Positions 38,842-46,880 of a stretch of DNA of 64,000 nucleotides are shown one piece after another. Below the pieces are notes generated by a model. It saw only the letters and a list, made by a program, of their open reading frames with translations, was not told where the DNA came from and did not search any database. The stretch comes from Mobula hypostoma. Lineage: Eukaryota. The DNA lies in assembly GCF_963921235.1 (NCBI RefSeq), contig NC_086097.1, forward strand, positions 143,718,001-143,782,000, given 5' to 3'. Every line of letters begins with the position of its first letter. Position 1 is the stretch's first letter. The position numbers and the translations under genes are program-made.

Positions 38842-39034
38842 GATTTGTGGCAGTGCTGCTGATCCTAGCAGTGGGTGGACAGCACAGGTGGCGAAGATGG
38901 AACATCTTGCAATTGGCTAAAGTCTCGTCCTGCGCCACTGGAAAGAGCTTCCTTCAGACAATTTGGAGATACCACAACTACGGCTGCTGGTGTGGTTTGC
39001 GTGGAGCTGGGAAACCAGTAGATGGCACTGATAG
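38842..39034 (+). CDS. Secreted phospholipase A2-like gene, exon with signal core, propeptide and Ca2+ loop
   Basis: Acceptor ctctctgcag|; FVAVLLILAVGGQHRWRRW-NILQLAKVSSC...YGCWCGLRGAGKPVDGTD-R; donor AG|GTACTG, phase 2 as in sPLA2 genes. Confidence 0.93.
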
Positions 39035-41509
39035 GTACTGCCAGCTAAATATCTCACTTCGGTCTGGGTTCTTTAAGCATCATTTCCTATTATGATATCT
39101 AACCTAAATGTGTGCTGAGGCAACAAAGAAGGGAACTGTTTTCATCCAGTGCCTGTTAATCTTGGTAGATCATCTGTGCAGCCTTCCTGTATGGGCATAT
39201 CCTGAGAGTTGAATCTTACCCTGTCTACATGATTAGGCACATTAGAGAGAAGGAGGTTAGATTTCCTTTTCCCCCAATGCTTCTGGTGGGGAATGGAGAT
39301 GGGAAGTGGGTGAAGAGGTCCCACACTAGCATGACAAAGAACCTAGCAAAATGAAATCAACCTCTTGTGTTTCATTCAGATGTGGTCATTGCAATTCAAA
39401 GCCTCATAATGTAATTAATATGCCTGACAGTTTTGGGTCAGTTAGGAGCTGACGGACTTTAATTCTTTGTTCAATTTTACATTCTGTTTAGCTTGATGCA
39501 TAATGATTCATGTAGACTCAAGTCTGCCAGATGGGTTTGGTTGAAATCTGTGCTAATGACAGATGATAAAGGTATTCCTAGAATAGTACTTCAAAAGTAC
39601 CTTCCGGTAGAAGAATGCTAGTGGCTGTCACAGAGCAGAATAGATAAAGGAAATTCACAGAAGGCATTCCGCAGGTGACAAAAAACATTAATTAATTAAA
39701 AGGCACTTGATATATTTAAAAAGACTGCCGAATATTTTAATGTAACAAGTATGGGGTCAGTAATCAAAGACTTCCCATCTTCTCACTGCATGCCAAGGTG
39801 TTTCAAAGCCAGTGACAACCTTCTGTAGTTCAGATGCCATAGTAATTTGGGAAATAAATAACCAATTTTCACACAGTGCGTTCTCACAATTTGTAAAGAC
39901 CTTTCACTGAGGAAGTGTTGTTAGCTGGAAAATTGTCCCTTGGTCATCCTCTGTTGAGGAGAGGTTACAGACAATGCTTCAAAGGAATGTCTCATTGAAC
40001 AAGGGCATCTCGGACAGTACAACACTTTCTCAGTGCTGTAATATACTAACGTCAGAGGCTGTTGGGACCACAAACCTTGGGTGAGAGTTACTCACAAGCT
40101 GAAAATCCTTGGAATGAGGGGAAAGGTTATCTTTATCTTTGTAAGATGTTATTCAGAGGATCTCTGGCAATTATTTTCACACTGCCATCTATTCCACACC
40201 ATCTGAAATTCCAAAGGACTTTCATAGATCTTATTTACTTTATGAAACCGAAAAGGGATATAGTGTGGGCAGTTGACTCAACCATCCGCCACCTCTCTCA
40301 ATCCCTTTGCTGCTCTTGCTCTAAGTGCTGGAATGTTTAAAATTAGTTTCTGCTGCAAATACTGTTCAATCATCTAGAAATTTCAAATGGATGCTTAACC
40401 ACTTCTTCACTATGACACAGAGCATTTGTTTCGTATTGTTGATAAATTTCTGGCATTGCAAGGACTGCTTAATTGCCCAAGTGTAAATGCCCTTGAGAAG
40501 GTAAGTGATAAGTCACCTCCTTGAATACTGCAGTCGTACAAATGTTGTGAGACGATACTATGTAAAGCATTAGTTGGACCACAGTTGGAGTACTTTGTAC
40601 AGCTCTGGTCACAACAATATTAGAAGAACGTGATTAGACTGCGCAGAGATAAAGTTCAGAACTAGAGAACATAGATTAGCGGTCTTTATGAAAATAATCA
40701 ACGGAAGTTAATAATAAAGGATGTCACTTTAAAGTATTTGGAAAATAAAATGTTTGAATGGTGTCAACGTGGACTTATGGAAAGGAAATGATGTTTGATT
40801 AATATATTGTAATTCTTAAAGGGCAAGCATAGATTCAATGATTATTACAACACAGAAACAGGCTCTTTGGCTCAATTGGCCCACGTGGAGCACAGCATCC
40901 CCCCTGCCATTCCCAGTTGCCTGTGTTCGGGGAGGATGAGGATAATCCAGGGACTGTAGTGTGCTTGGATTTTCGGAAGGTTTCCAATAAGGCCTGAAAG
41001 AAGGCCTGGAAGATCATCGGGGACACCAGTCACCCCAACTATAAACTGTTTCAGCTGCTTCTGTCTGGCAAACACTACCATAGCATTAAAGCCAGGACTA
41101 AGAGGCTACAGGACAGCTTCTTTCTTCAAGCCATTAGACTTCTAGATTCACATGTCTGTACATTGTAACAGAGTCGTAACGCAAAGATTTTTACTCCGTC
41201 AGGTTGTGGGATGGATGTAATATTTAAATAAATTGTAATTCTAAATGAGGTCTCACCCAGGGAGGCTAGTGAAGAAGGTTAGGATAGATGGAATTGGTGT
41301 AAGTTAACATGGTGTGAGAGCTGATTAACAAAGAATAGGAATAAAGAGGTGGCTCTCAGGTTGGCAGGTTGTAAGCAGCAAGTGCCACAGAGATTGGTGG
41401 TAAGGCCCCAATCTTTCACAATCAAAATGTGAGTGAGGGGACCAAATGTAAGATATTTATTTTTAAATGGAGCTAGAGGGAATGCAGCCAACACTGGTTC
41501 TAGGGATTA

Positions 41510-41760
41510 AGACACACAAAATGCTGGAGGAACTTAGCAAGTCAGGCAGCATCTATAGAGTCAAAATTTCTACACAGGCAGCATCTACACAGTCAAAATT
41601 TTGGGCATTTTGGGCTGATATCCAAGTCCCAAAGAAGAGTCTCAGCCCGAAAAATTGATTGCTTAATTCCTTTCCTAGATACTGCCTGACCTGCTGAGAT
41701 TCTCCAGCATTTGGTGTGTGTTGCTCAAGAGTTCCAGCATCTGCAGAATCTCTTTTGTCT
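41510..41760. repeat. Penelope-derived fold-back repeat in PLA2 intron
   Basis: Arms ACACACAAATGCTGGAGGAACTTAGCAAGTCAGGCAGCATCTA / TAGATACTGCCTGACCTGCTGAGATTCTCCAGCATTTGGTGTGTGT. Confidence 0.7.
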
Positions 41761-44704: not shown

Positions 44705-46310
44705 AAAGTCAAAGTTGAGTGTAATGTCATATGCACAAGTACTTATGACAAATCAATGAAAAACTTACTTGTTACACAAAACTTAATTGAGACAGAACAC
44801 CCACAGGAGAAAGGTAAATTATACAGAATTATACAAGAAAGAAAACATTTAGAACAAAAAATGTCCATTGTAGTCCAGATTGTTGACTGATCATAAGTGT
44901 TAACTGTACTGAGGTAGATATTAGGGTTGTGAAGGTTGGTTCAGGAACTGAATGGTTCAAGGGATGTAGCCATCCTTAAACCTGGTGAGGTGTGACTTCA
45001 GCCTTTTCCTACTTATGGTAGCTGCTAGAAAATTGTGTGGCTCAGTTGGTGGGGATTCTCTATGACAGGTCTTACCTTCTTGAGGTAGCACCTCATGTAA
45101 ACACTATCGGTGGTGGGGAAGGATGTATTCAAGATGTTTTGGTCTGAGTCCAGTACTCTGCAGCTTTTTATATTACTGGGCATTCAAACAGCTGTACCAG
45201 ATTATGGTGCAACTATTTAGGATACTTTTAACAGTAATCTGTAGAAGTTTGTCAGAGTGTTCAGTGACATACATAGATTAAGGATCAACTTTATTTGCCA
45301 TATACACTATAAGCATCAGAATTTGCTATGGTGTATTAGCATGACATGCAACAAAAAACAACAACATTCAACAATCATGGAGCAATAAGAATTATTTAAA
45401 AATAAAGTTAGAAGTACAGATATGGAATAAAATGTGTATACGTACACATGCAAGTAAATATGCAAAAACCAACATGTATTTACAATGTAAACTGCATTAT
45501 AAAGAGTGGTTTAAAGTGTTTGCAGTGCAGTGGCTAAGGTAATGGATAGAGGGAGATGAGGTGCTAACTAGAATGGTTGACCAGATCAACTGCTTGGGCA
45601 AAGAAATTTTAAGATGGCATGAAGTTTTTGTTTTAATAGCCCTAAGGTGCTTTCCAGTAGGAAGCATTATGAAAAGACAATTTACTGAGTAGATAATATC
45701 TGCATTGATTTACCCTGTCCACTTCTTTGTCCTGGATACATACAAGGGGTGATTGTTAAGTTCATGGCCTACGGTAGAAGGAGTTGAGTTATATAGTTCT
45801 TGTTGTATGCACATGCAGGTCAACTTTTTGAGTGATTATGCAGAAAGTTTGAAGTTAATAACTCAACTCCTTCTACCTTAGGCCACAAACTTATCGATCA
45901 CCCCTGCTGTGGACCACTTTCTGGAGGTCCAAGGCGCCGACTTCTACAAAGAAGGGATCCGTATCCTCCACGACCGCTGGACTAAGTGTGTAAATGTAGG
46001 AGGGGACTATGTTGAAAAATAAATGTACTAGGTTTTCTAAAATTGACTCCTTCTACCTTAGGCCACAAACTTATCAATCACCCCTTGTACAAGTCCTGTA
46101 GTAATGCTACACTGGAGCCAATGACTTTTTCTGCCTTCCAGACAGTTCTCTGTAGTTTTGTATACAGTGAGAGGATGCTGCATCAAACCAGGTGGTAATG
46201 AGTGATAGGAGGATGCTCTCTATGATAACAGTGGAGAATTTCACCGGTATATTCAGGGGAAGATGGAATTTTTGCAACTGCTGCAAGAAGTATGTCTTCT
46301 GCCTAATCAC
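44705..46310 (-). mobile_element. Two degenerate Rex1-like 3' fragments
   Basis: ORF 46107-46310 (YFLQQLQKF..IIESIL..ITTWF); 3' tails at about 44705 and 45275. Confidence 0.65.
45743..46087 (+). mobile_element. Mariner-derived MITE with TA TSD
   Basis: TA|CAAGGGGTGATTG...CAATCACCCCTTG|TA; transposase C-terminus AVDHFLEVQGADFYKEGIRILHDRWTKCVNVGGDYVEK* (45906-46022); third internal TIR copy at about 45866-45906. Confidence 0.92.
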
Positions 46311-46755
46311 AGGTCAATTAAACCAATTAACTTCCTAACTGGTACACCTTTGGACAGTGTGAGGAACGTGATGCACCAGGAGGAGATCTGTACATACATG
46401 GGAAGGAACATATGAACTTGCTTACAGAGGACGCTTGAATTGAACTGACCATTATGCTATTGTGGTACTGTAGCTTGCCTATTTCCTGGTGATATTTGGA
46501 TTCCTCTACTCTGGTGATTCCTCTCCTATGACAGTGATGTCATCCACAAACTTTATCAGTTTAACTGATGGATCATTGGAGATTCAGTCATTGGTGTAAG
46601 GAGAAAATAGATGATAGATCACACACCCCTCTGGTGCAGCTGTGCTGACTGAGAGGGAGGATGAGATGTGCTTGCCTGATCTCACATACTACCATACAGG
46701 TGGGATCTACCTGTTCCATATGAGCTAATCTTCAGTCATTATGCTTTTATCTCAG

Positions 46756-46880
46756 CTGCAGAGACCCAGGGTGGAAAATGCAAGTATCTCCTATGCAAAT
46801 ATGATCAGCAATTCGCAAACTGCATCAGCTCTCAAGCTAATTATAACTCCAAGTACATGTACTACAATGGGTGCAGCTAA
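46756..46880 (+). CDS. Secreted PLA2-like gene, last coding exon
   Basis: Acceptor ttttatctcag| (in-frame alternative AG at 46760-46761); AAETQGGKCKYLLCKYDQQFANCISSQANYNSKYMYYNGCS*, matching the sPLA2 C..LC.CD..A.C...YN.KY..Y..C pattern; frame not shown in the ORF track. Confidence 0.88.

Follow-up and report, generated by a model that had tools for sequence, protein, structure and literature searches.

A secreted phospholipase A2 gene of cartilaginous fishes that is probably decaying into a pseudogene in several ray lineages

Within the window, by which we mean the whole 64,000-nucleotide stretch of DNA analysed, a secreted phospholipase A2 (sPLA2) gene lies on the forward strand, flanked by TMIE and by a gene for a class I myosin. 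The window sequence and tblastn gave four open coding exons, from an intact ATG exon at 34376 to a single terminal stop. Coding exon 1 (34376-34415), located by tblastn with shark orthologues, by sequence and by junction check, carries the ATG and the first part of the signal peptide and ends in a phase-1 GT donor; it is absent from an earlier note on this DNA. Coding exon 2 (38842-39034; Pfam match and 67% identity to Heptranchias XP_067831275.1) encodes the remaining signal peptide, the propeptide, the mature N-terminal helix and the Ca2+ loop. Coding exon 3 (44198-44313; translation and relatives' contigs) encodes the catalytic helix, and coding exon 4 (46756-46880; translation and orthologue comparison) the last helix with Asp99, a shortened low-charge C-terminus and the stop. 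Exons 2-4 have AG/GT boundaries, compatible phases and one terminal stop, as the earlier note had described, and all three match Pfam PF00068, the homology family of group I/II/V/X secreted PLA2. Introns interrupt the coding sequence within the signal peptide, ahead of Cys44 and behind Cys84. In this copy the ATG, the signal peptide, the six splice sites and the reading frame are all intact, and gene disruptions were seen only in two related organisms, C and D. The nearest forward-strand AATAAA after the stop, at 48154, is uninformative, with 209 poly(A)-signal matches in the window. That the host is a ray, as had been supposed, is borne out by an alpha-globin exon of its own genome, which scored 87 bits against PDB 1cg5, which we take to be stingray haemoglobin, versus 61 (1gcv) and 55 (3mkb) for what are presumably shark haemoglobins.

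Counted from the Asn codon at 38901, the mature chain has 124 residues, with 16 Lys/Arg, 7 Asp/Glu and a net charge of about +9. Arg32 (CGT, 39000-39002), Arg48 (CGT, 44211-44213), Asp49 and Tyr52 were confirmed in the sequence, and Tyr73 and Asp99 were read off the exon translations, all as previously reported. Arg48 occupies the catalytic His site, leaving the His48-Asp99 dyad of active sPLA2 incomplete. With the general-base His replaced, catalysis is predicted to be lost, as the earlier note held: if expressed, the product would lack hydrolytic activity because Arg would be unable to serve as general base.

Damage at Cys98, in the propeptide and at the C-terminus had been overlooked. The group I cysteine pattern claimed for this gene fits the shark and chimaera orthologues, which have 14 Cys, and is incomplete in the window copy: 13 Cys are present where group I has seven disulfides (11-77 included, none at 50), and the Cys98 site reads Tyr (TAT, 46800-46802) by orthologue comparison, the codon being read from the assembly. 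Since Cys51 and Cys98 pair in sPLA2, Cys51 is left without its usual disulfide partner. At the propeptide junction (38886-38903), Trp stands directly before the mature start where 6/6 orthologue records carry Arg, and Asp1 has become Asn; we infer that cleavage at a basic motif would be shifted forward by one residue, ahead of the usual mature start. Between Cys105 and the last Cys, 1 Lys/Arg remains in 17 residues versus 3-5 in 20 in the orthologues. The window protein departs in five columns, including His48, Cys98 and Asp1, from the residue common to the other four orthologues, compared with 0, 1 and 0 columns for the three sharks.

Orthologues were found in three sharks (Cetorhinus XP_078395856.1, Heptranchias XP_067831275.1 and Scyliorhinus XP_038664817.1), whose mature chains are 70-71% identical to that of the window, and in a chimaera (Callorhinchus XP_042187649.1); all are uncharacterised, and the names "nigroxin-like" and "RVV-VD-like" that orthologues carry are automatic source labels. 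They share with the window gene the exon-1 region, Trp28, Arg32 (His in the chimaera) and a basic charge. Unlike the window copy, they have His48, Cys98, Asp1 and an Arg immediately preceding the mature chain; their C-terminus is longer and more basic, and they keep the full His48/Asp49/Tyr52/Asp99 set. The window gene forms one clade with the sharks (support 97/93) and with the chimaera (88/82). In a tree whose deep branches are weak, this group is placed separately from teleost PLA2 and from the C78 cluster of the same genome; with partial rows in the tree, the clade is also separate from the genome's IB-like cluster and X-like gene. No batoid protein orthologue appeared among 119 profile-search matches or in searches returning 4 and 1 matches, word-based searches being lossy: one of them missed two shark orthologues found later. 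An AlphaFold model of a shark orthologue, built from a 6-row alignment, was too poor for use (mean pLDDT 51.8). In the main texts of openly readable papers, no description of this sPLA2 clade was found among the papers listed; likewise, there was no H48R PLA2, no cartilaginous-fish sPLA2 gene loss and no shark PLA2-TMIE report, and Arg48 did not occur in the papers listed.

Among solved structures, the best matches of a shark orthologue were PDB 6g5j (group X, E 4e-23) and 3elo (group IB, E 2e-18). Shared with these groups are a basic propeptide, as in group X, and Cys11-Cys77; the window gene lacks the Cys50 and the C-terminal extension of group X. Unlike group IB, it has a loop after Cys61 that is shorter than the pancreatic loop in alignments judged against canonical sPLA2 loop lengths.

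Two features that might appear to be novelties of this copy proved to be inherited. The sPLA2 Ca2+ site consists of Asp49 and the loop carbonyls 28, 30 and 32; by sequence, Asp49 and Gly30 are kept here, and Arg32 is common to the His48-bearing sharks. Gly32-to-Arg was accordingly rejected as a lesion, Arg being ancestral in the subfamily (Arg in sharks, His in the chimaera), and position 32 is non-Gly in 44/253 homologue motif matches. Cationic charge is no novelty either, as all the sharks are basic (net +6 to +12) and retain His48.

By contrast with Arg32, Arg48 is absent from the shark and chimaera orthologues: His occupies position 48 in every one of them with exon 3 and in 252/253 motif matches in the homologues retrieved. 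In X1, a run that may come from the source sample, no other letter appeared over 44100-44400. Organism B (run X5) showed no difference at 44212, which lies 113 nt from the nearer contig end in a comparison that hides differences near piece ends. Contigs of both runs thus read G at 44212, ruling out an assembly error. Organisms D, E and J have CAT here (A at 44212), accounting for 3/4 runs compared, the fourth (F) having no coverage there; among these, run X18, from the same organism as run X16, reads His48. Because B, the nearest relative, is the only organism seen to share Arg48, and three related organisms have CAT, the change is young.

In two related organisms, the gene is broken in other ways. 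In organism C, a C>T change at 44247 turns an exon-3 codon into TGA, on a single contig of depth 7.7 that ends 60 nt away; in organism D, a single 1.2-kb contig of depth 13.9 carries an altered AG at the exon-3 acceptor (44197). Each change was read from a single contig in a single run and may represent only one of two alleles. In organism D, a cryptic acceptor might be supplied by an AG further upstream. No disabling change was present in organisms E and J among the differences displayed. Of the eight distinct exon-3 differences listed among six organisms, seven are nonsynonymous or nonsense and one is synonymous. On these incomplete lists, an omega near 1 fits (P=0.57) and an omega of 0.2 is rejected (P=0.027), while values of 0.3-0.5 are not (P 0.09-0.25). 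The end branch of the window protein is 0.34 versus 0-0.12 for the sharks, and relative-rate tests against the chimaera were not significant (P 0.30-0.79). Compared with the distant organism J, exon 3 has 6 other letters in 129 nt and the intron 16 in 120 nt; because the exon is the better kept, purifying selection acted over much of that path.

Collectively, these findings suggest that a cartilaginous-fish sPLA2 has come under relaxed selection and is probably on the way to pseudogene status in several lineages of rays. The orthologues would be enzymes that need Ca2+ and become active once cut behind a basic propeptide. The ray copy is likely no longer needed and may be drifting toward a pseudogene with its frame still open; its product, if expressed, would have a less stable fold owing to the free Cys51 and would be trimmed off-register. 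Selection was likely relaxed fairly recently in this ray clade, so that missense damage would have reached the window copy before any frameshift or stop.

An alternative that we consider unlikely is that the window species and B have kept the protein as a pseudoenzyme, a secreted non-catalytic ligand for a receptor, heparan sulfate or a bacterial surface, by analogy with mutants of groups IIA and IB that still signal without catalysis. PMC7583969 reports that His48Gln mutants retain COX-2, ERK and PLA2R effects. The intact frame, signal peptide and splice sites, the remaining net charge and the sharing of Arg48 with B, for which a single further exon-3 difference is listed, are all consistent with such a role. 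However, the Cys98 loss and the shifted propeptide junction resemble folding or processing damage rather than tuning, the charge does not exceed that of sharks with His48, and in related lineages the gene is disabled altogether. PLA2G12B, the otoconin-90 domains and otoconin-22 are catalytically dead homologues that have the PLA2 fold with replaced catalytic residues, and in PLA2G12B and otoconin-90 the inactive state is old and conserved across vertebrates, whereas here it is confined to a young branch. Slightly less probable again is a cartilaginous-fish-specific sPLA2 lineage that is splitting within rays, destroyed in some species and, in one young branch, maintained as an expressed, secreted Arg48 pseudoenzyme with a non-catalytic job such as binding a receptor or a bacterial surface; if so, it would be a pseudoenzyme at birth beside dying sister genes.

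The earlier note had also considered a recently relaxed duplicate; the gene does look relaxed, but no intact twin turned up in the assembly. That a second, undamaged copy with His48 performs the function from another locus is very unlikely. Searches of the genome's own assembly with exon 2, with the full orthologue and with exon-3 DNA each gave only this locus for the subfamily, subject to possible incompleteness of the assembly, so that the gene is single-copy with no functional copy elsewhere, as in a unitary pseudogene. Other sPLA2 genes with His48 in this genome (the C78 cluster, C45 and C63) might compensate functionally, but in the tree they belong to different clades.

The earlier note's leading proposal, a venom or membrane-disrupting toxin acting like the snake Lys49 PLA2-like myotoxins, is scarcely credible. 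Most devil rays have no functional sting, and Lys49 myotoxins lose Asp49 while keeping His48 and all disulfides. The window protein resembles them in being secreted, basic, predicted to be non-catalytic and non-Gly at 32, but differs in having lost His48 and one disulfide, kept Asp49 and become cation-poor at its C-terminus. According to PMC10893444, PLA2-like toxins often carry a residue other than Gly at 32 or 33, and the myotoxins act through a cation-rich C-terminal 115-129 segment, for which the window protein offers only the single Lys/Arg in the 17 residues after Cys105. Spine tissue from two species of Potamotrygon is reported to contain PLA2-like transcripts (PMC4768133), whereas the P. 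motoro spine transcriptome is reported to lack PLA2 (PMC6315956). Inherited charge and Arg32, lost C-terminal basic residues, a single-copy gene with no expansion, and the stop or broken acceptor in relatives' exon 3 all argue against a toxin-like cationic pseudoenzyme. Equally hard to credit is that the residue is an artefact, at odds with the X1 and X5 contigs, or that the protein retains enzymatic activity through a modified mechanism: Asp49, Tyr52 and Asp99 remain, but Arg is larger than His and permanently charged. According to PMC7583969, His48Gln keeps 1-4% activity in human IIA, but His48Asn keeps <0.5%.

In summary, decay of this gene is a modest result, one more gene loss, yet one with clear parallel inactivation by missense change here, nonsense change in C and splice-site change in D. 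With the species arranged on a tree, this inactivation could be given a date and related to diet or physiology. Should the Arg48 protein be expressed and conserved, it would be one of few natural cases of a His48-to-Arg change in an sPLA2, and one in which the origin of pseudoenzymes could be tested. A by-product may matter more: the gene marks an sPLA2 clade with Trp28 and Arg or His at 32, which in this analysis was seen in no group other than sharks, chimaera and rays.

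The secreted phospholipase A2 (sPLA2) gene described in the earlier note was borne out: three phase-compatible exons with AG/GT ends (38842-39034, 44198-44313 and 46756-46880) encode a mature chain of 124 residues with 16 K/R and 7 D/E, all three exon translations matched Pfam PF00068, and the sequence places the protein in the sPLA2 superfamily. Using shark orthologues, we located a first coding exon with the ATG and a phase-1 donor (34376-34415, + strand), which makes the gene complete, including the signal peptide. Upstream of this ATG, 34301-34375 showed a 48% alignment to an N-terminal extension annotated in a Heptranchias protein, and an in-frame ATG lies at 34312. 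CGT codons were confirmed at 44211-44213 (Arg48, replacing the catalytic His) and 39000-39002 (Arg32, in the calcium loop). At 44212, contigs of run X1, possibly from the source sample, gave 0 other letters over 44100-44400, and the contig of organism B, the nearest relative compared, did not differ from the window. The Arg48 substitution is therefore real and had been correctly spotted; of 253 motif matches in the fetched homologue proteins, 252 have His at position 48.

Protein searches recovered orthologues from Heptranchias, Cetorhinus, two Scyliorhinus species, Chiloscyllium and the chimaera Callorhinchus. Every record that includes exon 3 carries His48 and Asp49 (those of Chiloscyllium and S. 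torazame end with exon 2). In a 33-row tree with weak deep branches, three of whose own-genome rows are exon-2 fragments, the window protein and the sharks formed one group (97/93), which the chimaera joined next (88/82), while teleost PLA2, group II proteins and the remaining sPLA2 genes of the same genome fell elsewhere. Solved-structure matches of the shark protein were best for group X, followed by group IB. The clade, characterized by Trp28, Arg or His at 32, a basic propeptide and group-I cysteines, was found in this analysis in sharks, chimaera and rays only. Because residue 32 is Arg in all sharks and His in the chimaera, and 44 of the 253 homologue motifs lack Gly at that position, Arg32 belongs to the subfamily as a whole rather than being a change peculiar to this copy. 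The cationic character is likewise ancestral, given the net charge of +6 to +12 in shark orthologues.

Further changes accompany Arg48. The proposed group-I-type cysteine pattern is incomplete: the window chain has 13 cysteines against 14 in every full-length orthologue, and thus lacks the full disulfide set of group I sPLA2. In the assembly sequence, Cys98 is replaced by Tyr (codon 46800-46802), leaving its usual disulfide partner, Cys51, unpaired. Trp directly precedes the mature start, a position occupied by Arg in all 6 orthologue records; Asp1 is replaced by Asn relative to the orthologues; the C-terminus is truncated by 3 residues relative to Cetorhinus and Heptranchias; and one basic residue follows Cys105, compared with 3-5 in orthologues. 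Five columns common to the other four orthologues are broken by the window protein, whereas the sharks break 0, 1 and 0.

Comparison with related genomes provided the deciding evidence. Exon 3 was examined in eight runs from seven organisms (A-F and J, A being possibly the source), with 44212 covered and readable except in C and F. Organisms A and B have Arg at position 48, whereas D, E and J have A at 44212, a His codon, which makes the change to Arg48 a recent one. In organism C, a C>T substitution at 44247 creates a stop in exon 3, and organism D has an altered exon-3 acceptor at 44197, each in a single contig of a single run; since these contigs include flanking intron, both represent the orthologous locus. 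No disabling change appeared among the differences listed for E and J. The distinct exon-3 differences listed number at least eight, and 7/8 are nonsynonymous or nonsense, which fits the near-neutral expectation (82% of sites) and is unlikely at an omega of 0.2 (P=0.027), with omega 0.3-0.5 also compatible. Relative to J, exon 3 differs at 6/129 nt and a nearby intron piece at 16/120 nt, so constraint acted on the gene over a large part of the time since their divergence.

In excerpts of PMC10893444, His48, held by Asp99, deprotonates the attacking water in sPLA2, and Gln at position 48 leaves 1-4% activity and Asn under 0.5% in excerpts of PMC7583969. As even these residues nearly abolish activity, the Arg48 protein, which lacks the His48 required of active sPLA2 enzymes, is predicted to be catalytically dead. 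Collectively, the locus is probably a single-copy cartilaginous-fish sPLA2 gene in the early stages of becoming a pseudogene. The ancestral protein would have been a furin-type-activated, Ca2+-dependent enzyme; selection then probably relaxed in the ray clade, with lesions building up independently in each lineage, and the window copy would be at the stage preceding a frameshift or stop.

Several points count against decay: the reading frame is open, the ATG, signal peptide and splice sites are undamaged, four active-site residues are retained, and relative-rate tests were not significant; the past constraint seen against J and the lack of disabling changes among those listed for E and J point the same way. 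Retention as a non-catalytic ligand is nevertheless unlikely. The earlier note had also offered a relaxed duplicate; the listed exon-3 changes favor relaxation, but exon-2, full-orthologue and exon-3 DNA searches found the gene single-copy in the 3.48-Gb assembly (window on contig C1), making a hidden intact twin very unlikely. As for the suggested toxin-like pseudoenzyme, PLA2-like transcripts are reported from spines of two Potamotrygon species (PMC4768133, in part) and none from P. motoro spine (PMC6315956, in part), neither result being tied to this gene; a Lys49-like toxin is highly improbable because the cation-rich C-terminus required in excerpts of PMC10893444 is absent and the basicity ancestral. 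Equally improbable, with Arg48 found in both A and B, is residual catalysis or an artefact.

Other sPLA2 sequences were observed in the assembly. At least eight PLA2G1B-like exon-2 copies form a tandem cluster of ~280 kb (C78:3.88-4.16 Mb; L002, L005-L008, L010, L011, L013), with His48-Asp49 in all five whose exon 3 falls inside the fetched locus. L009 (C45:73.18 Mb) and L014 (C63:20.48 Mb) are sPLA2 genes with calcium loop and catalytic helix in a single frame, no intron before Cys44, and His48-Asp49; in the tree the two pair with each other on long branches. Another PLA2-like exon-2 match (L012, C1:15017835-15017978) is interrupted by two in-frame TAA codons and is a probable dead copy. Separately, 22 of 26 globin matches lie within ~0.9 Mb (C36:102.3-103.2 Mb; L016, L018-L027). 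One alpha-globin exon of the assembly scored 87 bits against PDB 1cg5, a stingray haemoglobin, compared with 61 and 55 bits against the shark haemoglobins 1gcv and 3mkb, which identifies the host as a ray.

Around the gene, we collected 771 non-repetitive open frames from the window plus 100 kb per side and ran 132 of the longest against Pfam. TMIE exons lie ~60-70 kb upstream of the ATG (L034:2416-2709, L035:5090-5383) and myosin-head exons, class I-like, ~70-80 kb beyond the window end (L044:8696-8971, L045:6740-7030); the remaining matches were mostly transposon remains. A 176-aa open frame at 3674-4204 (+), which opens with a coiled-coil-like segment and includes a proline-rich region, had no Pfam match and is possibly transposon-derived. 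To our knowledge, no mammalian sPLA2 occupies a TMIE/myosin I-like locus. Neither this TMIE/myosin-adjacent clade nor a natural Arg48 sPLA2 was found in the literature searched, a scope outside which most subscription papers fall. A very high-copy repeat in intron 3 (45735-46114) reaches a summed contig depth of up to ~1 million in D, E and F and is essentially absent in J, pointing to a recently inserted repeat family that could help to date the clade.

Early pseudogenisation thus remains our preferred account of this cartilaginous-fish sPLA2. A bolder reading, that a pseudoenzyme has been caught at birth, is unlikely; if true, it would be of much greater interest.
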